Assembly: GCA_017453205.1 (NCBI GenBank)
Contig: JAFTKO010000043.1
Coordinates: 3,454-67,453, forward strand
DNA: 64,000 bases
Source of the DNA: Clostridia bacterium
GTDB lineage: Bacteria > Bacillota > Clostridia > Oscillospirales > CAG-272
Reading direction: 5' to 3'
This document shows, one piece after another, positions 1 through 32,009 of this stretch. Position numbers and translations under genes: made by a program. Position 1 is the stretch's first letter, and each line of letters begins with the position of its first letter. The notes below the pieces were generated by a model that saw only the letters and a list, made by a program, of their open reading frames with translations, was not told the origin of the DNA and did no database searches.

Positions 1-1
1 T

Positions 2-1165
2 GAGGTGATTTCCAATAAGATTGAGCATCCCATCAACGCCGGCAACAAAAAGATTTTGATATTTACCGCTTTCTCCGATACCGCAAATTATCTCTATGAA
101 AACGTATCTGCATTTGTGAAAAATAAATATGGATTGAATACAGCGCAGATTACAGGAACGGTTGACGGCAAAACAACCATCCCGCGCTTCTCGGCAACGC
201 TTAATAACGTGCTGACCTATTTCTCCCCTATATCAAAGGACAAGCAGGTGCTGATGCCCAATAATAACGATAGCATTGATGTGCTGATCGCTACCGACTG
301 TATTTCCGAAGGTCAAAATCTGCAGGACTGCGATTACTGTATCAACTACGATATCCATTGGAATCCCGTTCGTATCATTCAGCGCTTTGGTCGAATCGAC
401 CGTATCGGATCAAAGAATGCTCATATTCAGCTTGTGAACTTCTGGCCAAATGTAACGCTTGACGATTACATCAATCTCAAGAGCCGCGTTGAGACTCGAA
501 TGAAGATTACGGTAATGACTTCTACGGGTGATGATGATCTCATCAATGCAGAGGAAAAGGGCGACCTTGAATACCGTAAAGCACAACTAAAACGACTTCA
601 GGAAGAGGTCGTAGATATTGAGGAAATGTCCAGCGGTATTTCTATTATGGACCTGGGGCTTAACGAATTTCGCCTTGATCTTCTGTCTTATACAAAGAAC
701 CACGGCGATCTTGACCACGTTCCATTCGGCATGAACGCAGTCGTTCCCGCAAGTGAGGATATGCCCGCAGGCGTGATATTCGTTCTAAAAAACCGCACCA
801 ATGCCGTCAATATCGGACATCAGAATCGCCTGCATCCGTTCTATATGGTGTATGTGGCAGAGGACGGTTCGGTGATTTGCGACCATCTTTCTCCCAAAGA
901 ACTGCTCGATAAAATGCGCTATCTTTGTAAGGACAAGACCTCGCCCTACGCCGAACTTTGCGCTGCGTTTAACCGTGAGACACGTGATGGCAAGGATATG
1001 AGAGTGTGCTCCAAGCTTCTTGGTGATGCGATACACTCTATCATTCACGTCAAGGAAGAAAGCGACATCAACAGTTTCCTCGGAGGTGAGCAGATCAGCT
1101 TTGCTGAGGGCGGCATTTCAGGGCTTGACGATTTTGAACTCATCTGTTTCTTAGTAGTAAAATAA
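2..1165 (+). CDS. SNF2-family helicase, C-terminal part (5' end outside window)
   Basis: The frame is open to the window edge. Helicase C-terminal motifs: KILIFTAFSDTANYL, IDVLIATDCISEGQNLQ, NYDIHWNPVRIIQRFGRIDRIGS (motif VI, QRxGRxxRxG type). Confidence 0.8.
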   Translation, partial: EVISNKIEHPINAGNKKILIFTAFSDTANYLYENVSAFVKNKYGLNTAQITGTVDGKTTIPRFSATLNNVLTYFSPISKDKQVLMPNNNDSIDVLIATDCISEGQNLQDCDYCINYDIHWNPVRIIQRFGRIDRIGSKNAHIQLVNFWPNVTLDDYINLKSRVETRMKITVMTSTGDDDLINAEEKGDLEYRKAQLKRLQEEVVDIEEMSSGISIMDLGLNEFRLDLLSYTKNHGDLDHVPFGMNAVVPASEDMPAGVIFVLKNRTNAVNIGHQNRLHPFYMVYVAEDGSVICDHLSPKELLDKMRYLCKDKTSPYAELCAAFNRETRDGKDMRVCSKLLGDAIHSIIHVKEESDINSFLGGEQISFAEGGISGLDDFELICFLVVK

Positions 1166-1175
1166 AGGAGTTGCT

Positions 1176-1481
1176 ATGACAAACGATACTATAATAACAA
1201 CAGTTTTAGAATATTTAAAGCAACGCCACCATCTTACCGATTTGGAAAAATCCATAATCGAAACCGCCAACGAGCTATCAAAGTATCCTTTTCAGCGTGA
1301 CAGTGCCGAGAAGAAGGTTGGAGAAAATTATTTGATGCATGGAGAACTGTTTGAAAATGAATTCAAGCATGCAAGTGTATTCGTCAAACCTCTTAATCAG
1401 TTGCCTGATGAAGATATTTTGGGAAATTTAAAGTTTCAGTTATTAAAAATGTGTGCAAAGGAACTGTCCAATCTACAATAA
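1176..1481 (+). CDS. Hypothetical 101-aa protein in the helicase/R-M operon
   Basis: ATG lies 7 nt after AAAGGAG and 10 nt after the helicase stop. No family recognised. Confidence 0.45.
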   Translation: MTNDTIITTVLEYLKQRHHLTDLEKSIIETANELSKYPFQRDSAEKKVGENYLMHGELFENEFKHASVFVKPLNQLPDEDILGNLKFQLLKMCAKELSNLQ

Positions 1482-1493
1482 GGAGGAATATCA

Positions 1494-2114
1494 GTGTTAG
1501 GTTTACCATCAAAAGCGAAAGTATCAAAAATGCTTCCCAAAAAAGCAATATACGAAAAATTCAATATGACCACAGCTCAAAAGGCAAAATTTGACGCTGA
1601 TATATCCCGTATCTCTATTGTTGGAGAGATTACACCGACAACTACGCAAATTGCGGCGGGAAAGGACATACAAGGCTTTTACATACTTCAAATCGTACTG
1701 AAGAACAAAAAGTACGACGAAAAGGCTATTGCGAGCCTCTCCAAACTGATACCTCAGCGTATGATTTTCCTTTTGCAGTATGAAAATCAGTATTGCCTTG
1801 CGTACTATCATAATCGCCTATACCACACGGAATGGGTGGAGCTTGATAGGCTTTTAGTGCCACTGTCGGGACTTGATCTTGACATTGTATGGGAAAACAC
1901 TATAAAACAGATTGTTTGCGGTGAAAATAGTGCTGCATGGGATGTCAATGCAACGATTGAGGAAAACATTGCTACGGAAACGCATCGGCGCAAATTGATA
2001 ACGGATATCGCATCGTTGGAAAAGAAGATACGTAGCGAGAAGCAACTAAATAGACAAATTCAGCTGAATGAAGAATTAAAACGCTTGAAAAAGGAGCTGG
2101 AGCAAATATCATGA
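1494..2114 (+). CDS. DUF4391-like protein
   Basis: GTG start after AAGGAGG. The N-terminal pattern LPKKAIYEKFNMT..QKAKFDADISRI, the size (~206 aa) and the position between an SNF2 helicase and a Mod-type methylase match my recollection of DUF4391 loci. Not verified by search. Confidence 0.5.
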   Translation: MLGLPSKAKVSKMLPKKAIYEKFNMTTAQKAKFDADISRISIVGEITPTTTQIAAGKDIQGFYILQIVLKNKKYDEKAIASLSKLIPQRMIFLLQYENQYCLAYYHNRLYHTEWVELDRLLVPLSGLDLDIVWENTIKQIVCGENSAAWDVNATIEENIATETHRRKLITDIASLEKKIRSEKQLNRQIQLNEELKRLKKELEQIS

Positions 2115-3268
2115 TTCAAGAATATCTTTTCATAAATAAGACAGAGAAAGAAAAAATCGAACAATATACTCCCGATGACATAAAAATTGAAATATATGAT
2201 ATTGATAATTCCGATTGCTGGATTGCAACATTTTCCTTGTCAAGCGAAAGTGAACCAAGCGCAAATACCTTATCGAAGGTTCACGAGTATATCATTGGAG
2301 AATTTCACCCCATTGTTTTGAGCAACGGTTGCTCTGCGTATTATAATAAAGCTCTTTTTCCCCATTTTAACGAATTCGAAAGAAAGCTGAGAAAATTGCT
2401 TTACCTAAAAAGTGCGCTGAGCAAGAATTCCAAAGATGCAGAGATCATAAAGGATTTGGAAAGCAAGGATTTCGGAGAAATATTTACTCTTTTGTTCTCG
2501 GATGCTCAGTTCGTACAAAATGCTAAGAAAACAATTGGCGATAAAACGTGGCAGTTTACCAAAGCTGAAATAGTTGCCGCGATAGAACAATTGTCCGAAC
2601 ATACTGTTTGGGATAACTTGATAGGAAAAGATGCGGTTCCACTGTTGCGTTCAGATTTTATTAAAGTTAAGAATTTTCGTAACGATGTAATGCATGCGCA
2701 TGCGATGAATGCCAAAAGTTATTCTTCTGCATTAAAGCTTATAAAAAAGATAAATGAGCAACTTGATACCGAAATTGGTAAAATTATTGTAGCCAAGGAG
2801 AATACGGTTCAACAAGAACCTGAACAGGATTTCAATACGGCTATGGGAGATGCTATAAAAGACATGGATTCTGTGCAGACCGCAAAAAGCTGGCAAGAAC
2901 AATTAGCAGAGCTGCAAGCTATGGCTTCTGGAATAAAGCCCCAGGGTATGATTGCGGCAATTGAAGAATACCGCCGTCTGACAAAATCGCCTGAAATAGT
3001 TGCTATGAGAGAATATCTTGTATCACCCGAATTTGCAGACATAACGAAACATGTTCAAGAAATATCAAAAATTCAATTGGATATTCCCCCAGTTGTTAAA
3101 GAGTTGCAGGAGCTTGCGGCATCAATGAAAGAATATAAAATCACTATTCCGCAGGAATTATTAGAATTGCAAAAATCTCTAAAAGATTTCAAACCGGATC
3201 CCGCATTAATTGAATTAGCCAAAAGCATGAAAGAAATAACAGGAGAAACAAAATCATGGAAAAAATGA
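2111..3268 (+). CDS. HEPN-domain protein (Swt1-like pattern) with a repeat-bearing helical C-terminal half
   Basis: ATGA overlap with the upstream stop. FERKLRKLLY helix plus an Rx4H motif, FRNDVMHAH (R at 2678-2680, H at 2693-2695). The C-terminus contains ELAASMKEY and ELAKSMKEI repeats. Confidence 0.5.
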   Translation: MIQEYLFINKTEKEKIEQYTPDDIKIEIYDIDNSDCWIATFSLSSESEPSANTLSKVHEYIIGEFHPIVLSNGCSAYYNKALFPHFNEFERKLRKLLYLKSALSKNSKDAEIIKDLESKDFGEIFTLLFSDAQFVQNAKKTIGDKTWQFTKAEIVAAIEQLSEHTVWDNLIGKDAVPLLRSDFIKVKNFRNDVMHAHAMNAKSYSSALKLIKKINEQLDTEIGKIIVAKENTVQQEPEQDFNTAMGDAIKDMDSVQTAKSWQEQLAELQAMASGIKPQGMIAAIEEYRRLTKSPEIVAMREYLVSPEFADITKHVQEISKIQLDIPPVVKELQELAASMKEYKITIPQELLELQKSLKDFKPDPALIELAKSMKEITGETKSWKK

Positions 3269-5256
3269 GAATGGAATCGGTAAATATGACCGAGCAGAAT
3301 ATAGAAAAGATCGGTGCGTTGTTCCCGAATTGTATCACGGAAACTGTAGATGAGAACGGGAAACTCAAGAAAGCAATCAATTTTGATATTCTCCGTCAGA
3401 TGCTGACCGAGGAAGCTATTGTGGGCGATGAAAAATATGAGTTTACATGGGTAGGTAAGAAAGCGGCAATTGTAGAAGCTAACAAGCCGATTCGTAAAAC
3501 TTTGCGCCCCTGTCCCGATGAAAGCAAAAATTGGGATTCGACCGAGAACCTATACATTGAGGGAGATAACCTTGAAGTGCTGAAGCTGTTGCAGGAAAGT
3601 TATCTTGGCAAGGTAAAGATGATCTATATTGATCCACCGTACAACACCGGAAATGATTTTGTATATAAAGACAACTATACAACGGACACCAATCAATACG
3701 CAGAACAAATCGGAGTTTTTAACGAGGATAACAATCGTTTGTTTCATAATACGGAAACCAATGGACGTTTTCATTCCGACTGGTGTAGTATGCTCTATGC
3801 CCGCCTACAACTTGCAAAGAATCTTTTAACTGATGATGGTGTTATTTTTATATCCATAGATGATAGTGAAATTCGAAATCTAAAGAATATTTGTGACGAG
3901 ATATTTGGAGGAGCGAACTTTATAGCTCAATTGATTTGGCAAAATAAAAAAGGCGGAGGCAATGATTCCACTCACATCGCAATTGAGCACGAATATATTT
4001 TGACTTATGCTAAAAACAAGGTCTTGTTAGGAGAGTTTTACGAATCCTATTCTGCAGAATATATAAAACGCTATAAAGAGGTTGATGATGTAGGTAGGTT
4101 TTATTGGGATACTTTTAAGCGTAAGGCTGGAAAACAATACTATCCGATTACATGTCCCGATGGAACTATCCTTGAATACGACGATGATGGCAACGCAATT
4201 AGTTGGCTAAGATCGAAAGAGCGATTTGATTCAGATATTAAAGCTGGGGAAATTAGAATCATTAAAGTAAACGACAAATGGTCGGTACAATTCAAGCAAC
4301 GAATTCCTTTAGGTAAAACCCCACGCAGTATTTTTACAACTAATACGGTTATTTCGGACAAAGGAACTACGAGTGCAGGAGCTAATGATGTATACGAATA
4401 CTTTAAGAAAGATGTCTTTTCCAATCCTAAGCCAGTTGCTTTGATTGAGTTTTTACTTGGCTTTGGGTTAGGCAAAGATGATATCGTATTGGACTTTTTT
4501 AGCGGATCGGGAACAACCGCTGAAGCGGTTATGCGTTCCAATCTTGATGGTAATCATAGAAAGTTTATCTTGGTTCAATTAGATGAAAACATCGATCCGA
4601 TGCTCAACAGTTCATCAGCAAATGCAAAGAGAGTGGCTGAGAATGCTGTGTCTGTTCTTGATCAGTTAAAACTACCACACACCATCCCTGAATTAGCCAA
4701 AATACGAATTAAAAGAGCTGGCGATAGCATAAAACAAAAATTGTTGGGAGAAGCTGCAATTAATCTGTTTGCAATAGACTTCAATCGTGATTTGGAACAA
4801 GAATTAAATCAAAGAACTGAATCAAAACTTGATTTGGCATCGGATTTAGACATCGGCTTCCGTGTGTTCAAGCTCGATGAATCCAACATGAATAGCGTAT
4901 ATTACAGTGCTGATGACTACTCCCAGGACATGCTCTCTATGTTGGAATCAAATATCAAGGACGACCGTACCGACCTCGATTTGCTGTTTGGTTGCTTACT
5001 TGAATGGGGATTGCCTCTTTCTCTGCCGTATAAATCCGAAAAAATTGAGGACTATACCGTTCACACCTATAATGACGGAGACCTGGTAGCATGCTTTGAG
5101 GAAAACATTCCCGAAACTGTCATTAAGGAGATCGCGAAGCGCAAACCTCTCCGCGCAGTCTTCCGCGACAGCAGCTTTGCCAATAGCCCTGCCAAGATCA
5201 ACGTAACAGAAATATTCAAGCTTCTTGCTCCCGATACAAGAGTGAAGGTGATCTGA
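3256..5256 (+). CDS. Site-specific DNA methyltransferase, Type III Mod-like (beta-class N6A/N4C)
   Basis: Motif IV, IYIDPPYNTGNDF, lies upstream of motif I, LDFFSGSGTTAEAV (beta-class order). GGAG sits 10 nt upstream of the ATG. The start overlaps the upstream gene; alternative in-frame ATGs run up to 3286. Confidence 0.85.
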   Translation: MEKMRMESVNMTEQNIEKIGALFPNCITETVDENGKLKKAINFDILRQMLTEEAIVGDEKYEFTWVGKKAAIVEANKPIRKTLRPCPDESKNWDSTENLYIEGDNLEVLKLLQESYLGKVKMIYIDPPYNTGNDFVYKDNYTTDTNQYAEQIGVFNEDNNRLFHNTETNGRFHSDWCSMLYARLQLAKNLLTDDGVIFISIDDSEIRNLKNICDEIFGGANFIAQLIWQNKKGGGNDSTHIAIEHEYILTYAKNKVLLGEFYESYSAEYIKRYKEVDDVGRFYWDTFKRKAGKQYYPITCPDGTILEYDDDGNAISWLRSKERFDSDIKAGEIRIIKVNDKWSVQFKQRIPLGKTPRSIFTTNTVISDKGTTSAGANDVYEYFKKDVFSNPKPVALIEFLLGFGLGKDDIVLDFFSGSGTTAEAVMRSNLDGNHRKFILVQLDENIDPMLNSSSANAKRVAENAVSVLDQLKLPHTIPELAKIRIKRAGDSIKQKLLGEAAINLFAIDFNRDLEQELNQRTESKLDLASDLDIGFRVFKLDESNMNSVYYSADDYSQDMLSMLESNIKDDRTDLDLLFGCLLEWGLPLSLPYKSEKIEDYTVHTYNDGDLVACFEENIPETVIKEIAKRKPLRAVFRDSSFANSPAKINVTEIFKLLAPDTRVKVI

Positions 5257-5822
5257 TGAAAAATCCATCATTAGCATATTTGGCGAAATCATTTTATAAT
5301 GCGTATATTGCCCTTGATCAGCTTGAACCGGATCAGGACGAATTGCTTTTGTATATCCCTAAATTGGTTAATGGAGCTTTTTCTGCTGAATTGATAATCA
5401 AGGCTATTTTAGTGGAACAAGATATACCTTATAATAACGAACATAATCTTAAAATTCTTTTTGAAAAACTTCCTATGGATTTTCAAAATAGAGTTTGGTA
5501 CTTTCTTGCTCAAAAAGCGCCGGAGTATGCAGATACGGAAAAGCGAGAAAACGAATTATTACTTATGTCAGATGCTTTTGTACAATGGAGATACTGTTAT
5601 GAAGGAAAGTTTGCACCTGCCTTCGATATACGATTTCTTTCGGCATTTACCAATGCACTTATTATTGTGATGTTCGAACTGGGATATAATGTGTTCTTTA
5701 CAAAATCAGAAATGGCACTTTCGCCAGAAGAATGTGCTGAGATTGATAAAAAAATTGAAAATAATCGCCGTGAATGTATGAAGAATAATGAAGCTAATAT
5801 AAAAAAGAAAAGCAGGAGGTGA
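5256..5822 (+). CDS. Small all-helical protein, possibly classical HEPN fold
   Basis: TGATG overlap with the mod stop. The pattern AELIIKAILVEQ..EHNLKILFEKL followed by FVQWRYCYE resembles PF05168-type HEPN (KALL..H.L..L ... RY). Weak, by eye only. Confidence 0.35.
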   Translation: MKNPSLAYLAKSFYNAYIALDQLEPDQDELLLYIPKLVNGAFSAELIIKAILVEQDIPYNNEHNLKILFEKLPMDFQNRVWYFLAQKAPEYADTEKRENELLLMSDAFVQWRYCYEGKFAPAFDIRFLSAFTNALIIVMFELGYNVFFTKSEMALSPEECAEIDKKIENNRRECMKNNEANIKKKSRR

Positions 5823-5827
5823 AAGAT

Positions 5828-8800
5828 ATGAAACTCCAATTTAAACATCAAAAATTCCAAGCTGACGCTGCCAAAGCGGTTGTAGATGTTTTTGCCGGAC
5901 AGCCCTATCTTACACCATCCTATATGATGGACAAAGGTAGCGTTTATCAGATGAAAACGACAGACGATGAAGATTTTACGGGCTGGCGCAATGAGCGTAT
6001 TGTGCCCGGACTTTCCGATGCCGTTATATTGGAGCATCTAAATAAAATACAACGTGCCAATCAAATTGCCCCCTCACTTCAGCTTGAAGGACGGTACAAT
6101 CTGACGATTGAGATGGAAACAGGCGTTGGCAAAACTTATACATACATCAAAACCATGTATGAGTTAAATAAGCATTACGGATGGAGCAAATTCATCGTGG
6201 TTGTTCCAAGCGTGGCAATCAGAGAGGGTGTTTACAAATCCTTTCAGGTAACGCAGGAGCATTTTGCGGAGGAATACGGTAAAAAAGTTCGCTTCTTTAT
6301 CTACAATTCTGCTCAGCTTACCGAGATTGACCGTTTTGCGTCTGACAACGGAATTAACGTTATGATCATCAATTCCCAAGCATTCAATGCTAAGGGCAAG
6401 GATGCGCGACGCATTTATATGAAGCTTGACGAATTCCGTTCCCGCCGTCCGATTGATATTATTGCAAAAACAAATCCTATTGTAATCATTGATGAGCCTC
6501 AGTCGGTAGAGGGAAAGCAAACCAAGGAGAGACTGAAGGAATTCAATCCTTTAATCACCTTGCGTTATTCGGCAACTCACAAATCCGACAGTATTTATAA
6601 TATGGTGTACCGTCTGGATGCAATGGAGGCGTACAACAAACGATTGGTAAAGAAGATTGCCGTAAAAGGAATTACCGAAACAGGAAGCACTGCAACCGAG
6701 GGATACGTATATCTTGAAAGCATCAATCTTTCAAAAGCAGATCCTACGGCAACCATTCAATTTGATGTCAAAGGTGCTTCGGGAATCAAGAAAAAGACGG
6801 CAACAGTCAATATCGGATATAATCTGTACGATCATTCAGGCAATCTTGATGAATACAAAAACAATTTTGTTGTTAAGGCAATTGACGGTCGTGACGATTC
6901 GGTGGAATTTCTTAATGGTATCAAAATTTACGCAGGCGATGTTATAGGCAAAGTAGCAGAGGATCAGTTACGCCGTATACAGATTCGAGAAACCATTCTA
7001 TCCCATATCGAGAGAGAAAGAAAGCTGTTCCACAAGGGGATCAAGGTGCTGTCTTTGTTCTTCATTGATGAAGTGCAAAAGTACAAGCAATATGATGAGG
7101 CAGGACAACCCTTTAATGGTATTTACGCTGATATGTTTGTTGAGGAATACAACGATATTCTCGGTAATATGCAGCTTCAGTTCGGTGACGATGATTATAT
7201 GCGTTATCTCAATGCGATTGATGCGAACGCTACACACGCCGGATACTTTTCTGTTGATAAAAAAGGACGTATGACCGATAGCAAATTCTCCGACAAAGCG
7301 GAAAAGACTTCAGATGATATTGATGCGTATGACCTAATCATGAAAAACAAGGAGTTGTTACTCGATCGTAATCCCAAGCGTTCACCGGTTCGCTTTATCT
7401 TCTCCCACTCTGCGTTAAGAGAAGGCTGGGATAATCCTAATGTATTCCAAATTTGCACGTTAAAGCAAAGTAGCAGCGAGGTGCGTAAGCGTCAGGAAGT
7501 CGGTCGCGGGTTGCGTCTTTGTGTCAATCAGGACGGAGAGCGTATGGATGCCAACGTGCTCGGAAACGATGTTCACAGCATCAATGTACTTACCGTTATT
7601 GCAAGTGAGAGCTACGACAAGTTTGCCAAAGGATTACAAGAGGAATTGGCAGATGCGGTGGCTAACCGTCCGCGCGCTGTTACCGTTGATTTGTTCAAGG
7701 GTAAGGTTATTAAGGATATCGACGGAAATGAAGTTGTTGTAGATGCAGACCTCGCTCAAGCTATTCACTATGAGATGATCATCAATGGCTATATCGACCG
7801 AAAAGGTAATCTTACGGATAAATATTACGAAGATAAGTCCAATTCGGAGATTAAGGTTGCGGAGGAGGTTGCCGATTGCACAGAATCAATCATTGATATC
7901 CTTGATTCTGTATATGACAGCAAGGCAATGCAGCCAGAAAATGCTCGAAGCAACAATGTGGAGTTACAGGTAAACAACGATAAGCTTCAAATGCAGGAAT
8001 TTAAAGCGCTATGGAAGCGTATCAATGCAAAATCCGTATACGTTGTGGATTTCGATACAGAGGAGCTGATTTCAAAAGCAATAGACAAATTGAATCTCAA
8101 GCTCAGAGTATCGAAGGTTTTCTTCAAAATCGAAAGCGGAGCAATGTCTGAAATAAAATCAAAAGAATCTTTACTGGAGGGATCGTCATTTACCAAAGAA
8201 AAATCCTCTATGTACAATCTTGAAAACACAATTCGCGCAAATCAAAGCGTTAAATACGATTTGGTTGGAAAGCTGGTAGAGGAAACAGGACTGACTCGCA
8301 AAGCGATCGTTGCTATTCTTCAAGGCATCGACAAAACTGTTTTTGATCAATTTAAGGACAATCCAGAAGATTTCATTATAAAAGCAGCTCAATTGATCAA
8401 TGACGAAAAGGCAACGGCAATTATTCAGCATATAACCTATAGTGTGATTGATGACTGCTATGATACGGATATCTTTACCGATGCTACAATCAAGGGTAAG
8501 CTTGGTGTAAATGCAATGAAAGCAAATAATCACCTGTACGATCATATCGTCTATGATTCTACTAATGAGCGCAATTTTGCAACAGAGCTTGATACAAATA
8601 CGGATGTTGCTGTATACGTTAAGCTTCCGAATAGCTTTTACATTACTACTCCGGTAGGCAAATATAACCCAGACTGGGCAATTGCCTTTTATGAGGGTAA
8701 GGTAAAGCACATCTATTTTGTAGCTGAAACCAAGGGTACAATGGATACAATGACATTTAACCACATTACTCCTGTTGAACAAGCAAAGATTGATTGTGCA

Positions 8801-8890
8801 AGAGAGCATTTTAAAGCTATTAGCGGTGATGATGTGGTGTATGATGTGGTCGATAGCTATCAAAGCCTGCTTGAAAAGGTTATGAAGTGA
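5828..8890 (+). CDS. Type III restriction enzyme Res subunit (helicase-nuclease)
   Basis: AGGAGG 8 nt upstream of the ATG. Walker A METGVGKTYT, motif II VIIDEPQSVEG, motif VI QEVGRGLRL. C-terminal PD-(D/E)xK-like YNPDWAIAF...YFVAETKG. Confidence 0.85.
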   Translation: MKLQFKHQKFQADAAKAVVDVFAGQPYLTPSYMMDKGSVYQMKTTDDEDFTGWRNERIVPGLSDAVILEHLNKIQRANQIAPSLQLEGRYNLTIEMETGVGKTYTYIKTMYELNKHYGWSKFIVVVPSVAIREGVYKSFQVTQEHFAEEYGKKVRFFIYNSAQLTEIDRFASDNGINVMIINSQAFNAKGKDARRIYMKLDEFRSRRPIDIIAKTNPIVIIDEPQSVEGKQTKERLKEFNPLITLRYSATHKSDSIYNMVYRLDAMEAYNKRLVKKIAVKGITETGSTATEGYVYLESINLSKADPTATIQFDVKGASGIKKKTATVNIGYNLYDHSGNLDEYKNNFVVKAIDGRDDSVEFLNGIKIYAGDVIGKVAEDQLRRIQIRETILSHIERERKLFHKGIKVLSLFFIDEVQKYKQYDEAGQPFNGIYADMFVEEYNDILGNMQLQFGDDDYMRYLNAIDANATHAGYFSVDKKGRMTDSKFSDKAEKTSDDIDAYDLIMKNKELLLDRNPKRSPVRFIFSHSALREGWDNPNVFQICTLKQSSSEVRKRQEVGRGLRLCVNQDGERMDANVLGNDVHSINVLTVIASESYDKFAKGLQEELADAVANRPRAVTVDLFKGKVIKDIDGNEVVVDADLAQAIHYEMIINGYIDRKGNLTDKYYEDKSNSEIKVAEEVADCTESIIDILDSVYDSKAMQPENARSNNVELQVNNDKLQMQEFKALWKRINAKSVYVVDFDTEELISKAIDKLNLKLRVSKVFFKIESGAMSEIKSKESLLEGSSFTKEKSSMYNLENTIRANQSVKYDLVGKLVEETGLTRKAIVAILQGIDKTVFDQFKDNPEDFIIKAAQLINDEKATAIIQHITYSVIDDCYDTDIFTDATIKGKLGVNAMKANNHLYDHIVYDSTNERNFATELDTNTDVAVYVKLPNSFYITTPVGKYNPDWAIAFYEGKVKHIYFVAETKGTMDTMTFNHITPVEQAKIDCAREHFKAISGDDVVYDVVDSYQSLLEKVMK

Positions 8891-8942
8891 TAAAACTATA
8901 ATTCTGAAATAATTGCAGTATAAACATACGGAGAAAAACAAT

Positions 8943-9725
8943 ATGAGTAACGATATAAATCAAGATCTTGCAAAGGAATTGGTTGCGCAGACCGCTGGTA
9001 AAACTTATGATGATATTGCGCATCCTACCGCTCACGCGACAGGGCAAATTATAAGTTTTATCCCAAGAACTATTAAGGTATGGCTTGGAAAGTGGGAAAA
9101 ATGGATTCTCAACGGTGAATATGCGATAAAAGAAACAGAGATACTTCTGGCAGAAAAGTTAAAACACATACCTGAAGAAAAAATCGTAGAGCCCGAGCCT
9201 TATGTTGCTGTGCCTGCATTGCAACAGTTGAGCTATAGTCTTGATAGTGAAGAGTTAAGAGAATTGTATGCAAATCTACTTGCTTCTTCGATGAATGCAG
9301 ACACAAAAGGAGATGTCCATCCCGCATTTGTGGATATTATTAAACAATTAGCTCCAGATGAAGCAAAATTGTTACGCTATTTTTCTGAACAAAAAGCTAT
9401 ACCTGCGGTAGAGGTTAGAAAACGGTCAGAAACTGGTACAGGTTTCAGAATTCTTGCAAAACTAAATTTTACAATGCCAGATGGATTGTTAGATGTTCCT
9501 CAAAATTATCTCGTGTATGTGGACAATTTAATTAGATTGCAACTTGTAGAAATTCCTGCAGATACACATTATTCCAACGAGTCTCTATATAAACCTCTTG
9601 AAAATCCAATTATCTATCTCGGTGCACCTACTGAACGATTAGTGTTTGAAAGGAAAATAGTTAAAATTTCTCCTTTTGGGAAGCTTTTTGTAAAAACATG
9701 CCAACCCAAACAAGAGGGAAAATAA
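8943..9725 (+). CDS. Abi-alpha / DUF4393-like abortive-infection protein
   Basis: GGAG upstream of the ATG. Pattern ...YDDIAHP..., VPALQQLSYSLDSEELRELYANLLASSMN, VHPAFVDIIKQLAPDEAKLL is typical of the Abi-alpha family as I recall it. Confidence 0.6.
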   Translation: MSNDINQDLAKELVAQTAGKTYDDIAHPTAHATGQIISFIPRTIKVWLGKWEKWILNGEYAIKETEILLAEKLKHIPEEKIVEPEPYVAVPALQQLSYSLDSEELRELYANLLASSMNADTKGDVHPAFVDIIKQLAPDEAKLLRYFSEQKAIPAVEVRKRSETGTGFRILAKLNFTMPDGLLDVPQNYLVYVDNLIRLQLVEIPADTHYSNESLYKPLENPIIYLGAPTERLVFERKIVKISPFGKLFVKTCQPKQEGK

Positions 9726-10096
9726 TGACAAAACAAGAATTTCTTGAATACTGCCTTGATACATACGGCACATCACCAGACTATCCGTTTGACGAGGATT
9801 TTGAGACGGCGGTGCTGAGGCACACGGACAATCGCAAGTGGTATGCGATTGTGATGAAGGTCTCGCGGTGCAAGTTTGGGTTTGACAGCGACGAGTTAAT
9901 CGACGTTGTCAATCTCAAGCTGCCGACGGAAATGTTCGGTTCGTTCGGTGCAGCGGACGGAGTATATCCAGCGTATCATATGAATAAGCTTCATTGGATT
10001 TCGGTGCTACTGCCCGATGCGCCTGAGGACGTGGTGCAGTTTCTCGTGAACGTAAGTTTTGAAGCCACAAAATCAGTTAAGAAAAGGGCAAAATAG
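9725..10096 (+). CDS. MmcQ/YjbR-family protein
   Basis: TAATG overlap with the upstream stop. YPFDEDFETAVLRHTDNRKWYAIVM and AYHMNKLHWISV are typical of YjbR-like proteins. It is more GC-rich than its neighbours. Confidence 0.6.
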   Translation: MTKQEFLEYCLDTYGTSPDYPFDEDFETAVLRHTDNRKWYAIVMKVSRCKFGFDSDELIDVVNLKLPTEMFGSFGAADGVYPAYHMNKLHWISVLLPDAPEDVVQFLVNVSFEATKSVKKRAK

Positions 10097-11055: not shown

Positions 11056-13281
11056 ATGGTAGAAAGATACAAAATTGCCGCTTATACCCGTATTTCGGTG
11101 GACGTTGAGAAAGACACCGACAACACGAGTATCGAGAACCAAAAGGCAATTATTGCTGAGTATTGTAAGACTCACTTTCCAACGAGTACGGTGGATTACT
11201 ATGAAGACCGTGATAAATCCGGATATACGTTTAATCAGCGTCCGTGTTATTATTACGAGCTTCGTCCGAAGCTGATGAGCGGTGAGTATGATATTTTGAT
11301 CATCAAGGATCTGAGCCGTTTTTCTCGCCGTACAGGAAAGGGACTTGCCGAGTTTGAGGATCTTGTTGAAAATAATCTTCGCATCATTTCGATTGGTGAA
11401 TCCATCGATTACGAGGAGGGCAAGACCGACGACTGGTTGCAGATAAAGCTCTATTTCTTCGTTAACGAAATGCCCGTAACCGATGCCAGCAAAAAGGTAT
11501 TGGCAGTCATCGCAAACCGTCAGAAGAAGGGTGAGTGGGTCTGTTCGGTTCCTTACGGCTACGTAATGAAGAACACCAAAAAGATGATCTACGAGATTGA
11601 CGAGCCTGCCGCTGAGGTGGTTCGCGAGATCTTCCGCCTCTACATAAGTGGTTGGGGGTACAAGAGAATCGCCAATCATCTGACCGATAAAAAAATCCCA
11701 ACGCCGAGAATGTGCGAGAAAGCTCGCAAGGAGGCGATGGGAGATGAGTATCATGCGAAGGTTCGTGAGGAGTGGAGCATCATAACGGTATCGGAGATAC
11801 TCTGTAATGATTTCTATATCGGCACGCTTCGTTGCAAGAAATTTCAGCGGCAGAGGATCAATGGTCCCGACGTACCCGTTCACGAAAGCCAGCATATCGT
11901 TTTTGAGAACCATCATACGCCTATCGTTGACTCACGCACATTTATGACGGCGAAAGAGCAGCTGGAGCGCAGAAAGAAAGATCACTATCGCGGAGTAAAG
12001 AAAAACGAGAATAACTATTCCGGTTTCTTGATTTGCGGTGATTGCGGTTCTCCGATGTTTGCGAGAAATCGAGAGACTCTGAACGATGCCTACGTTTGCG
12101 GAAGGTATCACAGAAGAGGGCTGAAGGGATGCAAGGCTCACACGGTTAAGGTCGATTTTCTTGATGAAGTATTGAAGGAATATATCCGAAAGATCCGCGA
12201 TAATTCCGCTTCGATGATTGATGTTTTGAAGGATGCTATCAAAAACGAAGATCAGCGTACCGCTAACGGAAAGGAAGCCGCCGAGACTCTTATTGCGGAA
12301 ATTGAGGAGGAGCGCGACGTGCTTCGTTCCTTGGTAAAGCAAAGAGCCAAGGAGCTTGCAAGATCGGGCGAGGGATCCATTATGGTTGAATCCTACGATA
12401 TGGAGATTGACAGTTCCAGAAACCGTATTGAGGGCTTGCAAAATCAGCTTGAAATGGTGGCAAACACAACCAACACGATGGTTCGAGTTAATCGCGTTGC
12501 CAAGACCGTCATTGACGTTTTTAACGACATTTTGGAAAAGGATCACCTTGACAAGAACGATATCAACCTGATTATCAGTCACATGGTTGTTTTTGAGGAT
12601 CATATCGAGATCAAGCTGAAGGCGGAGATCGATGAGCTTCTAAGAACGGGTACGATCGAGCAGCTGAAACAGAATGAGGAAAGCGGAGCAGCCGTAAATT
12701 TTGACAAAGACACGGAAAATATCGAAAGCGCCGACGATTTCTATGAAATCGAGGCAGTACAGCGTGCAAATAAGCAGCATGACAAGGTTTTTCGTGTCAA
12801 TATTATCAGTGTGGGCGACCCGCTTGAAATCTATACTGACCGCGAAGGTGAAGTCATCTTTAAAAAATATTCTCCCATCGGCGAGCTCGCCTCGTTTGCG
12901 TCGCAATACGCCGAAACCCTGCACAAGACCTGTTCCCTTTCCGTCGTGATCTGTGACCGCGACGCCGTGATCGCTTGTGCGGGAGTCCCGCGCAAGGATT
13001 ACACCGACAAGGCACTCTCCGAGGAGCTGGAACAGATCATTGAGAACCGCTCTCTGTACTTCCACCGAGAGGACAGCGAGCCCATCCCCGTGCTTGCGGA
13101 AGGCGGAAGCTACTATGTCAGCTGTGCCATGCCCATCATCAGCGAGGGCGACATTGTCGGGTGCGTAGCGTCTGTTACCGATCAACCCGGAGCAGCGCGG
13201 CGCGAAGTTCCCGGAGGAGAAGTGGAAAGCAAGCTGATCCTTACCGCCGCCGGGTTTCTCGGCAGACAGCTGGAGAACTGA
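11056..13281 (+). CDS. Chimeric ORF: large serine recombinase (aa 1-586) read in frame into the spoVT 3' portion (aa 587-741)
   Basis: Resolvase N-terminus AAYTRISVD...IENQ, recombinase domain VPYGY, zinc ribbon CGDCGSPMF..YVCGRYHRRGLKGCKAH, then a coiled coil. From GDPLEIYTDREGEVIFKKYSPIGEL onwards it is colinear with SpoVT up to TAAGFLGRQLEN. Confidence 0.85.
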   Translation: MVERYKIAAYTRISVDVEKDTDNTSIENQKAIIAEYCKTHFPTSTVDYYEDRDKSGYTFNQRPCYYYELRPKLMSGEYDILIIKDLSRFSRRTGKGLAEFEDLVENNLRIISIGESIDYEEGKTDDWLQIKLYFFVNEMPVTDASKKVLAVIANRQKKGEWVCSVPYGYVMKNTKKMIYEIDEPAAEVVREIFRLYISGWGYKRIANHLTDKKIPTPRMCEKARKEAMGDEYHAKVREEWSIITVSEILCNDFYIGTLRCKKFQRQRINGPDVPVHESQHIVFENHHTPIVDSRTFMTAKEQLERRKKDHYRGVKKNENNYSGFLICGDCGSPMFARNRETLNDAYVCGRYHRRGLKGCKAHTVKVDFLDEVLKEYIRKIRDNSASMIDVLKDAIKNEDQRTANGKEAAETLIAEIEEERDVLRSLVKQRAKELARSGEGSIMVESYDMEIDSSRNRIEGLQNQLEMVANTTNTMVRVNRVAKTVIDVFNDILEKDHLDKNDINLIISHMVVFEDHIEIKLKAEIDELLRTGTIEQLKQNEESGAAVNFDKDTENIESADDFYEIEAVQRANKQHDKVFRVNIISVGDPLEIYTDREGEVIFKKYSPIGELASFASQYAETLHKTCSLSVVICDRDAVIACAGVPRKDYTDKALSEELEQIIENRSLYFHREDSEPIPVLAEGGSYYVSCAMPIISEGDIVGCVASVTDQPGAARREVPGGEVESKLILTAAGFLGRQLEN
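12814..13281 (+). pseudogene. spoVT: spoVT 3' fragment (lacks about the first 30 codons of the AbrB-type DNA-binding domain)
   Basis: 155 aa colinear with B. subtilis SpoVT, recalled from memory, from ...EGDPLEIFVDRDGEVILKKYSPISELGDFAKEYA... to ...TAAGFLARQMEQ. It has no start codon or RBS of its own. Confidence 0.8.
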
Positions 13282-21843: not shown

Positions 21844-22632
21844 TTATTCACGCCATTTTTTACGGTAAGCACTTGGGGAGATTCCCATCTGTCTGGCAAA
21901 AAAACGCGAAAATTGCAAAACGTCATCAAATCCGACCGAAATAGCCACCTCTGTGATCGTGCAATCGCTTTTTCGGAGCAATTCCAAAGCGTTTTGAAGC
22001 TTTACTTTGTTCAAATATTGCTTGGGAGACACCCCTTGATATTTGATAAAAAGATTATAAAGATAACGATCCGCAATATTTTGTGACGCAGCAATTTCTT
22101 TTACCGTAAGAGGACGGTGAAAGTTCAGATGAATGTAATTTTGAGCTTCGGTCACATAATGATTGTCGGAACGCGGCAAAGACACCTTGTGCATGGATAA
22201 CAGATAAAAAAATAATGACATCGCTTCCGCCTCTCCCAACGGAAACTTTTCGGAAAATATCTTACCAATTTGAAAAATCAAGTTTTGACAAAAGCCGTAA
22301 GTAAATATCCCGTGCGTATCGGTTTTAATATATTTTTGACATATTTGATCGGCACATTCACCCTCAAACACCACCCAAAAATATTTCCACGGATCGATCT
22401 CATCAAAATGATATTCCACACTCTGCATAGGACGGATCAAAAAGCCTTGCCCATTTTTTACGGAAAAATCATTAAAAAAACCGCTTCCTTCCAAAACGTA
22501 ATGCAAGATATAAACATTTCTGCTCCCACGCCCCCACTTGGCATCATTACCGATATTCTCATAACCGAAATGACAAATTTTCAACAGTAAAGAATCACCT
22601 TGGAAAACAGATCTCATTTTCATCTTCCTCAC
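21844..22632 (-). CDS. AraC-family transcriptional regulator
   Basis: N-terminal cupin-like sensor, C-terminal double HTH (...ITEVAISVGFDDVLQFSRFFARQMGISPSAYRK). Divergent from the GH27 gene. Confidence 0.8.
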   Translation of the reverse strand: MRKMKMRSVFQGDSLLLKICHFGYENIGNDAKWGRGSRNVYILHYVLEGSGFFNDFSVKNGQGFLIRPMQSVEYHFDEIDPWKYFWVVFEGECADQICQKYIKTDTHGIFTYGFCQNLIFQIGKIFSEKFPLGEAEAMSLFFYLLSMHKVSLPRSDNHYVTEAQNYIHLNFHRPLTVKEIAASQNIADRYLYNLFIKYQGVSPKQYLNKVKLQNALELLRKSDCTITEVAISVGFDDVLQFSRFFARQMGISPSAYRKKWRE

Positions 22633-22725
22633 CCCCTATGATTTTACCATAAATAACTATGTTTTGTCAATAGGAAATAAAATCTATATATGCTATAATA
22701 AATAAAAAATCAGGAGGAACCGACG

Positions 22726-24177
22726 ATGAGAACAATCCGTATTGCAACCGCCATGCCTTTTACCGGGGCACCCAAAATCAATCTTGCTTCCGTTTTCGGA
22801 GCATCACCGAACAAACCCTTTCTATTAAGGATCCCCGTTACAGGGGAACGCCCCATTTCGTACAGTGCACTTGATCTACCCGAAGGCCTTGTACTGAACG
22901 ATAACATCATCTCCGGTAGCGTCGTTTCGGCAGGAAATTATCAAATCACGCTTATCGCCCAAAACCGCCACGGCGTTGATCGCAAAAAGCTTTTGTTGGA
23001 AATTCGACCGGAAAACGTACTTGTAACGCCCTTGCTTGGCTTTACGACGTGGAACGCCTTTGGCTCCGAGGTATCACAAGCCTCCGTTTTAAATATCGTT
23101 AAGCGATTGACCGAGCTTGGTATTACGGAATACGGATACCGTTACGTCAACATCGACTCCGGTTGGCAATCTCAATACGGCGGTAAATTTGACGCCGTTA
23201 TGCCAAATCAAAAGTTTCCGAATATGAAGTACCTCACCGATACATTGCACGCCTTGGGATTGAAATGCGGAATCTATTCCACTCCGATGCTCAACGCATG
23301 GGGATGTCCCAAGGAGTTCTCCTCTATTCCCGGTTGTACCACGGGTGAGCCCGACAAACGCTTTGCCTCGACCATGGGTGGGATTGGTGTTGTCCGCAAA
23401 GAAAAAAACAATGTACTGCAATGGACGGAATGGGGCTTTGACTACCTAAAATACGATTGGACACCGACTGATCCGGTCAATGCCGAGCTCATGCGAAGCG
23501 AGCTGATGCGCTCTGACCGCGACTTTGGATTTTGTGTCACCGTACATGCACTCAAGGAATATCATGAGTATTGGTCAAAATATTGCAGCTCTTACCGATC
23601 CAATACCGACTCGTTTGGAAATTGGAGCAATCTATTGGATATCTATCGATCGTATTTTACATTTATGCCCTATATCAATAAAGGACACTATTTTGATTTG
23701 GATATGTTGGATATCGGCACTTGTAATTACAGTGCCGTCGGTAAGGAGTTTACTGAGGACGAGATGATCGTTGCGTATTCAATGCGGGCTTTTTTTAATT
23801 CGCCCATTCAAATCAGCAGCACCCTCGAAAACATCAGCAAATTCGAGCTTTCGCTTTACTGTAATGACGAAATCATCGCAATCAATCAAGACACTGCTTT
23901 TTCCACGGCAACTCCAATCTATCAAATCGAAGAAAACGGAAGGCTTCTGCACGTTTTTGAAAAAAAGCTGGAAGATCAAACATACGCATACGCTTTTTTC
24001 CAGCTCGGAGATCAAGAGGAGCACTTACACATCATTTTTGACGGTATCGGCAGCTTACGAGATGTATGGGCAAAAGAGGATATTGGGTTGAGCGATAAAA
24101 TCGATCTGTCCATGTCTCCTCATAGCGTTCGTATTATAAAAAGCACGAAAGCTTTAAAAACGGTAACTATACAATAA
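22726..24177 (+). CDS. GH27-like alpha-galactosidase / alpha-N-acetylgalactosaminidase with an N-terminal Ig-like domain
   Basis: LLGFTTWNAFGSEV..., GYRYVNIDSGWQ, FPNMKYLTDTLHALGLKCGIYSTP, DYLKYDW (clan GH-D motifs). Confidence 0.7.
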   Translation: MRTIRIATAMPFTGAPKINLASVFGASPNKPFLLRIPVTGERPISYSALDLPEGLVLNDNIISGSVVSAGNYQITLIAQNRHGVDRKKLLLEIRPENVLVTPLLGFTTWNAFGSEVSQASVLNIVKRLTELGITEYGYRYVNIDSGWQSQYGGKFDAVMPNQKFPNMKYLTDTLHALGLKCGIYSTPMLNAWGCPKEFSSIPGCTTGEPDKRFASTMGGIGVVRKEKNNVLQWTEWGFDYLKYDWTPTDPVNAELMRSELMRSDRDFGFCVTVHALKEYHEYWSKYCSSYRSNTDSFGNWSNLLDIYRSYFTFMPYINKGHYFDLDMLDIGTCNYSAVGKEFTEDEMIVAYSMRAFFNSPIQISSTLENISKFELSLYCNDEIIAINQDTAFSTATPIYQIEENGRLLHVFEKKLEDQTYAYAFFQLGDQEEHLHIIFDGIGSLRDVWAKEDIGLSDKIDLSMSPHSVRIIKSTKALKTVTIQ

Positions 24178-27888: not shown

Positions 27889-29079
27889 TCACCACTCGAT
27901 CTCGATCACAAGCGGCTCCGCGGGATAATCATCCACAGGGATCCCTGTGATGCTGACGAACGGACCTGCGGCTCTGCCGCCCCAAATATACGCGGGGAGT
28001 GTCTCGTAACGCAACCCAAGCGTCTCTCCGCCGTTGAGCAACCTTGCGCACTTGGGTACCGAAGGCGCGTTGACAAAGTTGATCGCGGAAGAACTCGATC
28101 CCGCATAATAGCACAGATAGGTTTTTTCGTTCTTGCGGAAAGCAACAAAGGGATCCTTGCCCTTTGTCGTCAATCCCAAAGGATCCTTTTCGTGTCCCTC
28201 GAGTACGCCGTTCATGCGACAGTACCAGTCGCCCACGCGCTTGATGATCGAAGCACTCTTTTCGTCAATCTTTCCGTTTGCCATCGGTCCGACATTGAGC
28301 AAATAACTGCCGCCCATTGCCATGATCTTGCAGATGGAGCTTGTCAGATATCGGATCGAAAAATAGTCCTCGTTCTCGCGATATCCCCACGATTGCTCAC
28401 CTACCGACTCACACGCCTCGGTCATGCGCACAAAGCGATTCCCCTCGGGAACCTCGCGCTCGGGAGTTTCAAAGTCACCGTCATCATAGCCGCGATTGTT
28501 GATGAAAATACCCGGCTGCAGCTCTCTGATCAGCTCGTTCATCGATTGATCGATATACTTGGGAGGGATATCCCAAAAAAAGGTATAGATCTCGCCGTAG
28601 TTTGTCAACAACTCACGCACTTGATTTTTGACATACGCACGGTATTTTTCTCTGTCGCCCGCACTTGGATTGACCGCCTTCCATTGATGGGTAGAGTAGG
28701 AATTGTAGCCGTTTTCGTGGTGCCAATCGGGGTTGGAGTAGTAGAGAGAAAGCTTCATGCCATGCTTGCGGCAGGCATCGGCAAGCATTTTGAGCACATC
28801 CTTGCCATAGGGGGTATTCATAACATTGTAGTCGGTATACTTGGTATCCCACATGCAAAAGCCGTCGTGATGCTTGGTCGTAAAGCAGATGTACTTCATG
28901 CCTGCATTCTTTGCAAGCAATACCCATTCCTCGGGGTCGTACTCGGTTGGGTTGAACTGTCCTACCAGCTTGTCGTATTCCTCATGCGACATATCATTCC
29001 GTGCGATCACCTGCTCCTGCACACCCGTCAGCGCGTAGATGCCCCAGTGAATAAACATTCCGAATTTGTTGTTTTCCAT
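27889..29079 (-). CDS. GH29 alpha-L-fucosidase
   Basis: FGMFIHWGIYA, GMKYICFTTKHHDGFCMWDT. ATG at 29079 after GAGGGG. Confidence 0.9.
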   Translation of the reverse strand: MENNKFGMFIHWGIYALTGVQEQVIARNDMSHEEYDKLVGQFNPTEYDPEEWVLLAKNAGMKYICFTTKHHDGFCMWDTKYTDYNVMNTPYGKDVLKMLADACRKHGMKLSLYYSNPDWHHENGYNSYSTHQWKAVNPSAGDREKYRAYVKNQVRELLTNYGEIYTFFWDIPPKYIDQSMNELIRELQPGIFINNRGYDDGDFETPEREVPEGNRFVRMTEACESVGEQSWGYRENEDYFSIRYLTSSICKIMAMGGSYLLNVGPMANGKIDEKSASIIKRVGDWYCRMNGVLEGHEKDPLGLTTKGKDPFVAFRKNEKTYLCYYAGSSSSAINFVNAPSVPKCARLLNGGETLGLRYETLPAYIWGGRAAGPFVSITGIPVDDYPAEPLVIEIEW

Positions 29080-29203
29080 TGTATTCCCCTCAATTTTGTT
29101 TTCTGTTGGTTGCATTATAACACGGCGCGGAACAAAAGTCAATAAATTATCAACGCACTTTTTATAAAATATCAACTCAATTTTATAAATTTAGAATTTG
29201 TGA

Positions 29204-29632
29204 TTATTTAGAAAAATCAATTTCATACCGTGTGCCGTGTGAAAATAAAAGTCCATCGGTTAGTTTAATACAAAGAATACAAGTATTTATATCATCAAAA
29301 TTATTGTGACCGTTATCAATCCACTCGGAAAATGCCACTTTCATCTTTTTTGCGATGCGTGCATTTTCTGCTTTTCCAAAATAGCCTAAATTAATCCCTT
29401 TGCCATGTGCGGTAAACCAATCCCCCGATATCGCAACCGTAGGATTATGTTCGATTTGTCTCATTTTATTTGACAATCCATAAGTAAGCACATAAAAAGC
29501 ACCGTTGTCATAAAATGCGTTCACGTTACGGACATAAGGAACGTCATCAATTGTTGTTGCCAGTGCAATGATACAATCTTTGCCAAATCGGTCTATTAGT
29601 ATTGCTTCTGCCGCTTTTGATAATTTTTCCAT
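29204..29632 (-). CDS. Pyridoxamine 5'-phosphate oxidase-like FMN-binding protein
   Basis: Size and pattern (IIALATTIDDVPYVRNVNAFYDNGAFYVLT ... NPTVAISG). GGAGGT is the RBS. Confidence 0.5.
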   Translation of the reverse strand: MEKLSKAAEAILIDRFGKDCIIALATTIDDVPYVRNVNAFYDNGAFYVLTYGLSNKMRQIEHNPTVAISGDWFTAHGKGINLGYFGKAENARIAKKMKVAFSEWIDNGHNNFDDINTCILCIKLTDGLLFSHGTRYEIDFSK

Positions 29633-29753
29633 TGGTGTTACCTCCACAAAGCCAAATTTACCGTCAGTTCATTATATCACAAAATGATAAAACTATAATT
29701 CAGCACCTAATCTCACCGACAAATTGGAATTTGTCGCTCCGAATAAATACATT

Positions 29754-30500: not shown

Positions 30501-30646
30501 TATCTTTCCCCTTTATGACCCGGTCGCTTTCTTTTCCCTTGGAGCAACAAATTCAAGTTTATCTGTTAGTTACATTCTACCATAAAATCATAGAAAAGTA
30601 AATAAGAGAGTCCAATTTTTGCAATTTTATATCACCCCGTTTCATT

Positions 30647-31522: not shown

Positions 31523-32009
31523 TACCGGTTCTCCTTTTATTTTTTTCAATTATACTCTTTTATTTTTATAATGTCAATACAAAAGGAGACAAATTAGTTG
31601 AATTATTGGGCATTGTAGCATTAATCGTAACCTTTACAACGCCCATTTTATCAGCTACTGATTCAAACAATTTATAGTGTATCTGACAGGAATTTGCGGT
31701 ACGTCTTAAAATAATCAAGCCATTCTCCTACTATCGAATTTATGATTTCGGCTAATCCAATCATCATGACCATCGGCTAAGCCGTGGCTTGCTCACGAAT
31801 CCCAAGCTGAGGTGTGAGTGCTTTTCTGCAAAGGAGGGAAAAGATTTTGGAGAAATGAGAGAAAAACAGTGAAAATTAAGTTTGGAGAAAAGTTTTTTCC
31901 ATTTTGCCAGTTTTTTAAATTCATGCACGCAAAAGCAAGCGTGACCTGCATCGTTACCTTCGCAGGTGTTTTTCAATACGACTTCCTTTTTGTCTACAAT
32001 CTGAATTTA

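Follow-up and report, generated by a model that had tools for sequence, protein, structure and literature searches.

A Type III restriction-modification operon with an SNF2-family helicase and a DUF4391 protein: a four-gene core with exchangeable cargo

The first 9.7 kb of a 64,000-nucleotide stretch of a Clostridia bacterium genome (contig JAFTKO010000043.1; the whole stretch is called the window here, and coordinates refer to it) carry a Type III restriction-modification (R-M) operon with several additional genes, all on the + strand. The window opens inside the gene of an SNF2-family ATPase and holds 387 amino acids (aa) of this 1072-aa helicase, its C-terminus (2..1165; Helicase_C 1.3e-15). 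A 101-aa open reading frame (ORF; 1176..1481) follows, then a DUF4391 protein of 206 aa (1494..2114; PF14335 3.8e-36), a 385-aa ORF that is a putative Swt1-like HEPN protein (2111..3268), the methylase Mod with 666 aa (3256..5256; PADLOC MTase_III 1.2e-205, N6_N4_Mtase 3e-37), a 188-aa ORF that resembles classical HEPN proteins (5256..5822; PF05168-like), and Res with 1020 aa (5828..8890; PADLOC REase_III 2.9e-284, RE_endonuc 5e-34, ResIII 1.4e-14). We will call the helicase, DUF4391, Mod and Res core genes 1 to 4. The junctions between them are slot A (helicase/DUF4391), slot B (DUF4391/Mod) and slot C (Mod/Res), and in the window they hold the 101-aa, 385-aa and 188-aa ORFs, respectively, as variable cargo.

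An initial annotation of this sequence described seven packed co-directional genes followed by an Abi-alpha gene, and reading the sequence bears out both the coordinates and the junctions it gave. The helicase and the 101-aa ORF are 10 nt apart and the 101-aa ORF and DUF4391 12 nt apart, with AGGAG in each gap. DUF4391 and the 385-aa ORF share an ATGA overlap at 2111, the 385-aa ORF and mod overlap by 13 nt at 3256, and mod meets the 188-aa gene in a TGATG at 5256. A 5-nt gap precedes the ATG of Res at 5828, with AGGAGG upstream. Intergenic gaps are at most 52 nt throughout the 9.7 kb, a terminator scan found no convincing + strand terminator within the gene block, and positions 1-10096 form a single unbroken block on the + strand. 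The N-terminal 685 aa of the helicase lie upstream of the window. This missing 5' part is supplied by a metagenome contig (L001) that is 100% identical to the window across 12,114 bases.

We think it probable that this locus has two layers, a conserved four-gene Type III variant with an accessory motor and exchangeable cargo at three junctions. The comparison behind this view covers about 160 related loci. No stretch of DUF4391 is conserved enough to search with, so the surveys were anchored on the helicase and on Res; a scan with the DUF4391 protein by itself returned 3 loci only. A helicase-motif scan of one genome per species gave at least 599 pattern matches and at least 581 relatives, and the best 80 of these at least 581 were analysed. 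The loci among the 80 that come from different species and reach Res form a set of 59. The helicase, DUF4391, Mod and Res are all present in 59 of 59, in the same order and on the same strand. The SNF2 helicase and the DUF4391-like protein had been called extras to Mod and Res, and this co-occurrence survey upholds that claim and makes them conserved extras. Twelve of the 59 loci are compact four-gene operons with nothing in any slot, their junctions being mostly overlaps or gaps of less than 20 nt.

The hosts of the four-gene core include Firmicutes, Bacteroidota, Proteobacteria, Actinobacteria and candidate phyla radiation (CPR) bacteria, as well as plasmids and a prophage. The window joined to L001 has all four genes on one strand in this order, and loci found through homologues of the 385-aa protein have the same helicase/DUF4391/Mod/Res frame with different extras. 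The same four genes, with empty slots or other cargo, are carried by Mycolicibacterium, Phaeobacter and Acinetobacter plasmids. Among 5426 complete E. coli genomes the operon is found in 10, nine times on a plasmid and once on the chromosome; the copy on plasmid pRHB17-C02_4 (L015; CP057716.1, 3234-12562) is a compact four-gene operon, right after repA on IncFIB plasmids. Between E. coli copies, about 9% of the query has no match. Erysipelothrix phage phi1605 (L189, MF172979.1, 75033-83913) has a helicase followed by a 714-nt gene and then by Mod and Res, which keeps the order of the core; the record is 90 kb long and prophage-like, and also carries mef(A)/msr(D). Its helicase is 42.5% identical to the one in the window. 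The 714-nt gene is by position the candidate for DUF4391; it is annotated as a 'methyl-accepting chemotaxis protein', and this label is probably an annotation error.

For the slots we counted a gap of at least 200 nt as filled. Slot A is then occupied in 6 of the 59 loci, slot B in 43 and slot C in 32. Slot A elsewhere holds unrelated genes, for example SieB and GmrSD. The contents of slot B include AAA_21/AAA_15, TIR, ThsB_TIR, SIR2 with HerA, PDDEXK_3 and SLFN_AlbA_2 (Schlafen/AlbA) proteins, and further AAA_13, a KAP NTPase, DUF4145, a trypsin-like protease and several DUFs. Slot C contains RhuM (7), YhcG/DUF1016 (4), 23S_rRNA_IVP (4), TPR, HEPN and SIR2 proteins. The window's cargo is seldom found elsewhere: of the 59 loci, 2 have a member of the 385-aa family and 1 has a member of the 188-aa family, while the 101-aa ORF is absent throughout. 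Across the related loci the 385-aa family is found in slot B of L004-L010, L055, L069, L183 and L187, and the 101-aa ORF only in the near-identical loci L001-L003 and L011.

These counts bear most directly on the idea that the seven genes are one obligate composite machine, with restriction, translocase and RNases as its subunits. Seven co-directional genes with overlapping or near-abutting junctions are what such a machine might look like, and in several related loci the 385-aa gene retains its ATGA overlap with DUF4391. However, the cargo of the window is nearly absent from the 59 loci, 12 of them do without any cargo, unrelated genes occupy the same junctions, and the 385-aa and 188-aa families also occur away from R-M genes. 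The survey largely refutes the obligate machine and we consider it very improbable. What survives of the composite system proposed initially is the SNF2/DUF4391/Mod/Res unit. The 101-aa, 385-aa and 188-aa ORFs do not hold up as genes conserved with Mod/Res, since their slots elsewhere are empty or filled with unrelated genes.

The settings away from R-M operons are instructive. In L185/L186:1107-3983 the 385-aa gene lies directly 5' of a gene for a KAP-family NTPase with a 4-nt gap, near TnpV, and this setting is transposon-like. In L021/L022, far from R-M genes, a 74-aa gene comes next after the gene of the 188-aa family and overlaps it. Possibly the 385-aa/KAP and 188-aa/74-aa pairs are two-gene modules in their own right. 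The presence of both families outside R-M operons identifies them as portable genes and not subunits.

What the cargo proteins do can be approached from their sequences. Searches of Pfam, NCBIfam, PADLOC and PHROGs returned nothing for the 101-aa ORF, and PADLOC has no model for it, for DUF4391 or for the 385-aa and 188-aa proteins. The 385-aa protein has 23 homologues of 44-67% identity, in which the N-terminal 230 residues are well conserved and the coiled-coil tail is variable. Its AlphaFold2 (AF2) model, with a predicted local distance difference test score (pLDDT) of 76, has a ferredoxin-like beta-alpha-beta domain at 1-72 and helices after it that bear invariant NEFERKLRKLLYLK and RNDxMH motifs. 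The latter, R190-N-D-x-M-H195, is invariant in all 23 homologues and fits the HEPN signature Rx4-6H. HEPN_Swt1 matches are found in 7 of the 23 family members at E 0.011-0.14, far under the 27.5-bit cut-off. A Foldseek search of the model against the PDB gave nothing below E 0.27; the only resemblance was in the ferredoxin-like N-domain, with no HEPN. We consider it plausible from the motif that the 385-aa protein is a HEPN protein, so the HEPN label proposed initially for this ORF keeps its Rx4-6H motif while its profile matches are all sub-threshold.

The 188-aa protein matches the Pfam HEPN family PF05168 at E 0.0018 with 18.9 bits against a cut-off of 22, a relative in L059 matches HEPN at 6.6e-06, and some representatives of its family have a precomputed PF05168 match. 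Conserved in the family are E45, K49, H63, R112, Y113 and E116 (pattern E..K, HNL, WRY..E). The catalytic Rx4-6H dyad is absent: R112 is invariant, with no His 4-6 residues further on (WRYCYEGKF; consensus WRY.fE). With a sub-threshold resemblance to classical HEPN proteins and no catalytic His, the 188-aa protein may be a non-catalytic HEPN protein. Profile searches of solved structures with the 385-aa and 188-aa alignments returned coiled-coil noise or nothing, and hhalign found no relation between the two families (probability 0.2%). An RNase activity of this cargo would have to be read from such motifs.

In the core, Mod is a beta-class N6-adenine methyltransferase in which DPPY at residue 126 precedes FSGSG at 415, and it matches MTase_III over its full length. 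Res is an SF2 ATPase, with the Walker A motif GVGKT near residue 101, DEPQ at 222 and SAT, and it has a C-terminal PD-(D/E)XK nuclease (PD 948, ETK 967). With full-length Type III profile matches and intact catalytic motifs in both, the initial claim that Mod and Res make a complete Type III pair is well founded, even with the 188-aa gene standing between mod and res. By all sequence criteria they look like ordinary Type III members. Against NF012027, the equivalog of the StyLTI/EcoP15I type, Res reaches 351 bits where the cut-off is 564, which places it in a different clade from EcoP15I/StyLTI. Type III enzymes are textbook two-subunit machines, and the plain ones act by diffusion and collision. 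Their cleavage depends on ATP and on two inversely oriented unmethylated sites, and their asymmetric site is hemimethylated. As a side observation, five loci (L064, L169, L174, L132 and L034) have two full-length Mod genes in tandem ahead of a single Res; these may be two specificities or a phase-variable pair.

Anchoring the survey on Res gives a different view of the core. Of such loci, 35 extend 8 kb or more upstream. Both the helicase and DUF4391 are found in 23 of these, 2 retain DUF4391 remnants, and 9 of the 35 have Mod-Res only. The helicase/DUF4391 pair was not seen without Mod-Res in any surveyed locus. The association is asymmetric: Mod-Res can stand alone and the pair is not seen without Mod-Res. 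Taken with the fixed order of the core, this makes the helicase and DUF4391 look like a Type III-dependent add-on. One could still argue that the pair is an autonomous two-gene module for defence or DNA transactions that is merely co-localised with Type III R-M. Same-clade Mod-Res does exist alone, the DUF4391 and Res clades are discordant in the window, and many SNF2 proteins serve other defence systems, as the DrmD, ZorD, HmaA and BrxHII matches of the helicase indicate. Against autonomy, all 59 loci keep one order and one strand, and over 81 loci the four core proteins have correlated pairwise-distance matrices (r = 0.59-0.81). The pair also lacks a nuclease, a methylase and any sensor that can be recognised, and it was not met without Mod-Res. 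We regard an autonomous module as quite unlikely.

The helicase has intact ATPase motifs (GLGKT, DESH, SAT and QRFGRIDRIG). The DrmD, ZorD, HmaA and BrxHII profiles match its ATPase core, and RapA, the RNA polymerase-associated SNF2 protein, is among the closest solved relatives of this core, again by matches to the core only. End to end it matches the PADLOC model PDLC01075, 'C3a139 HKD+Snf2' (6.7e-124). The HKD motif HxK(x)4D(x)6GSxN is absent from the N-domain, where the closest segment is MMGFINVDD...NGFTT, and among six helicases from four phyla no His is conserved across residues 1-240. We read the N-terminal region as a PLD-like domain that would lack the catalytic His and Lys. Lacking a conserved His there, the 'HKD' part is catalytically dead, should it have a PLD fold at all, and the helicase would then have neither nuclease nor specificity of its own. 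The name C3a139 comes from a cluster listed near some type III CRISPR-cas cassettes, with 4 cases (Shah et al. 2018, PMC6546367), where neither DUF4391 nor Type III R-M is linked to it, and it carries no functional information.

In the genome loci found through the helicase, which belong to Firmicutes, Bacteroidota, Campylobacterota and further phyla, this protein is 64-74% identical to the one in the window; on plasmids of E. coli, Phaeobacter and Mycolicibacterium the figure is 52-54%. A small helix-turn-helix (HTH) gene, HTH_26-like, lies just 5' of the helicase in 17 of 74 loci (e.g. L004:5832-6041, L018:1324-1533, L016:5523-5708). It looks like a controller similar to C-proteins. The Mycolicibacterium plasmid has a different HTH gene upstream of the helicase. 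The locus in the window has none, and an ATPase_2/DUF234 gene (PDC-S27) lies upstream of its helicase instead.

The AF2 model of DUF4391 is a very confident one (pLDDT 95.6, predicted template modelling score, pTM, 0.86), in which residues 1-145 form an alpha/beta domain and residues 155-205 a long helical hairpin. Foldseek searches of the model against the PDB and BFVD gave nothing below E 0.016, and the alignment found only designed coiled coils among PDB sequence profiles. Identity to the window protein is 20-47%. In 38 diverse members the sole invariant residue is K16, and no nuclease-type acidic/basic constellation or catalytic set is conserved. Weak Foldseek rows to Hjc and a splicing endonuclease raised the possibility of a PD-(D/E)XK nuclease, which we reject for want of a conserved D...(D/E)xK set. 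DUF4391 is also the fastest-evolving core protein, with a mean p-distance of 0.65 against 0.37 for the helicase (81 loci). Apparent fusions of DUF4391 with HEPN (P0105 and others) could serve as Rosetta-stone evidence; however, the two domain matches overlap in their coordinates, which suggests chimeric or frameshifted metagenome calls, and we do not use them.

The literature is of little help with this protein. The initial annotation stated that no mechanism was known for the SNF2/DUF4391 pairing and our search agrees, as it yields no functional paper on DUF4391; one mention turned out to be a mistaken name for DUF7941. DUF4391 is enriched in Actinomyces strains that are non-permissive for the epibiont TM7x, at 3/3 against 1/10 and 1/10 (PMC7784981). 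This is a weak hint at a role in resisting foreign DNA or cells.

How might the core work? We suggest that Mod and Res would supply site recognition, self-methylation and the sole nuclease. The helicase would add a second DNA motor that needs Mod/Res in order to act on unmodified invader DNA, and DUF4391 would be a non-enzymatic adaptor coupling this motor to the restriction complex. We read the pair as an accessory motor because it has a motor without nuclease, methylase or evident sensor and precedes a complete Type III pair. The adaptor reading of DUF4391 follows from its fast evolution, its lack of a catalytic constellation and its terminal helical hairpin. The effect would be stronger or broader restriction, more processive or less dependent on site geometry than that of a plain Type III enzyme. 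The cargo genes are most likely independent effectors of a second line, of the abortive-infection type, which would be portable, co-transcribed and co-expressed with the R-M genes, and not subunits. The analogy is PrrC in EcoprrI. PrrC senses failure of the R-M complex.

The helicase and DUF4391 could also be a safety or control module, in which the SNF2 motor strips Mod/Res from host DNA and so limits self-restriction. It would act where replication or repair has left sites without methylation, or while the system settles in a new host. Type III methylation marks one strand only, so self-targeting is a real risk, and other SNF2 enzymes displace proteins from DNA. The system lies on mobile elements that enter naive hosts (plasmids, the prophage and the spoVT-splitting element described below), its helicase has no nuclease, and RapA is among the closest solved relatives of the core. 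However, the likeness to RapA is limited to that ATPase core, and plain Type III systems do without such a module. We take this to be a serious alternative, if on balance an unlikely one, and favour a motor that boosts restriction.

Several points weigh against the boosting motor and should be stated plainly. Sequence does not tell a motor that boosts restriction from one that restrains it, and the direction of the effect, like the physical contact of helicase and DUF4391 with Mod or Res, is something that we infer. The HEPN assignments of both cargo ORFs are weak. Same-clade Mod-Res persists without the helicase and DUF4391 in about a quarter of loci. The helicase survey took the closest 80 of at least 581 relatives, and more distant helicases might have other contexts. 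Finally, the DUF4391 of the window is 42-47% identical to its counterparts where Res is 45-48% identical, and about 30% identical where Res is about 80% identical (L004, L023 and others). The discordance means that the two halves can recombine, which argues against very tight partner specificity. By these identities the window's DUF4391 falls in a clade whose usual partner is the other Res clade, and the operon is a recombinant mosaic with its breakpoint probably at slot B.

It is useful to set this locus beside known systems. Like the Type III enzymes EcoP15I, EcoP1I and StyLTI (Mod2Res1-2), it has Mod followed by Res with full-length Type III profile matches. Unlike classical Type III systems, it has an SNF2 ATPase and DUF4391 ahead of Mod, accessory genes between core genes and a Res of another clade. 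An SNF2 motor with an adenine methyltransferase and a nuclease is a combination shared with DISARM (DrmD), BREX type 3 (BrxHII), Hma (HmaA) and the BREX-related DUF499 systems, and we considered each of these and rejected it. DISARM is built around DrmA (a DUF1998 helicase), DrmB and DrmC, to which class 1 adds DrmD. No DrmA, DrmB or DrmC is found among the operon proteins, and the helicase scores 77.7 bits against a cut-off of 610 with the DrmD equivalog, over the ATPase core only. Hma is made up of HmaA with a C-terminal NOV_C nuclease domain, HmaB as m5C methyltransferase and HmaC as ATPase. Here the HmaA profile covers helicase residues 571-824 only, Pfam gives no NOV_C match and the partners are Type III Mod/Res. 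The defining partners of BREX and the BREX-related DUF499 systems (PglZ/BrxC and the DUF499 ATPase) are absent.

For the cargo there are precedents. The Hma operon has insertion hot spots for other defence genes (PMC11232893). Toxin-like genes in R-M operons include PrrC in the Type Ic system EcoprrI, RhuM, HEPN and AbiEii-like genes (PMC3710099, PMC12707154). As with the genes embedded in Type I systems (Anantharaman et al. 2013, PMC3710099), RhuM, HEPN families and AAA_13/PrrC-like proteins also fill slots here. Unlike the case of PrrC in EcoprrI, the host operon is Type III, and the cargo of the window is without an ABC ATPase domain and only putatively HEPN. We found no paper that names or tests the SNF2/DUF4391/Type III arrangement, and an earlier comparative-genomic mention is possible. 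The locus is an uncharacterised variant of Type III R-M, and the copy in the window is a mosaic member with unusual cargo.

Downstream of Res lies an Abi_alpha-family gene of 260 aa (8943..9725, +; PF14337 1.7e-57, PADLOC candidate PDC-S47 3e-82), with a full-length profile match of 195 bits against a cut-off of 29. Its start is more likely the ATG at 8943, which has GGAG upstream and is the choice of the gene callers, than the TTG at 8913. A YjbR/MmcQ-family gene (9725..10096, +; PF04237 2.6e-15) overlaps the Abi_alpha stop by 1 nt (TAATG), so the Abi_alpha unit extends beyond 9725, and this suggests a two-gene unit. The Abi_alpha/YjbR pair is beside none of roughly 180 other related loci. 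It is a separate neighbour outside the conserved operon.

The gene block is the cargo of an element of about 20.3 kb that splits spoVT after codon ~33 (REGDP|LEIY). The 5' part of spoVT is at L001:895-1080, and the element carries a large serine recombinase at its right end (11056..13281, +; Resolvase, Recombinase, Zn_ribbon_recom and SpoVT_C within one ORF). This ORF of 741 aa reads on without a frame change into the C-terminal domain of SpoVT (window ~12810-12830), which puts the recombinase and the 3' half of spoVT in a single reading frame. Both spoVT/element junctions have in common a short GGCGACCC-like core. Upstream of the window the element carries the ATPase_2/DUF234 protein (PADLOC candidate PDC-S27), an HNH-like protein and DUF6100. 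G+C is 38-42% in the gene block against 48-54% in the adjoining chromosome, a drop that fits imported DNA. Other low-G+C blocks (22001-24000 and 28001-38000 of the window, 39-44% against about 50% nearby) suggest further imported segments. The locus is an example of defence cargo on an element that splits a sporulation gene.

Two extra conserved genes accompany a large share of one Res clade, in 23 of 35 Res-anchored loci and, by the helicase pattern, in at least 581 species genomes. The fold of DUF4391 is predicted with confidence, and no relative of it was found in the PDB or BFVD. The slots between the four core genes offer a simple way to harvest candidate defence genes. A natural copy on an E. 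coli plasmid makes the contribution of the second motor to Type III restriction directly testable. Taken further, in a reading that we hold to be less likely than not, the SNF2/DUF4391 systems might be an unrecognised, phylum-spanning subclass of Type III R-M, in which a second motor without a nuclease, docked through a protein of novel fold, would change the rules of restriction, perhaps by making two head-to-head sites unnecessary or by withstanding phage anti-restriction. The three junctions would then serve as dedicated landing pads, and their Abi-type cargo would respond to the state of the R-M complex.

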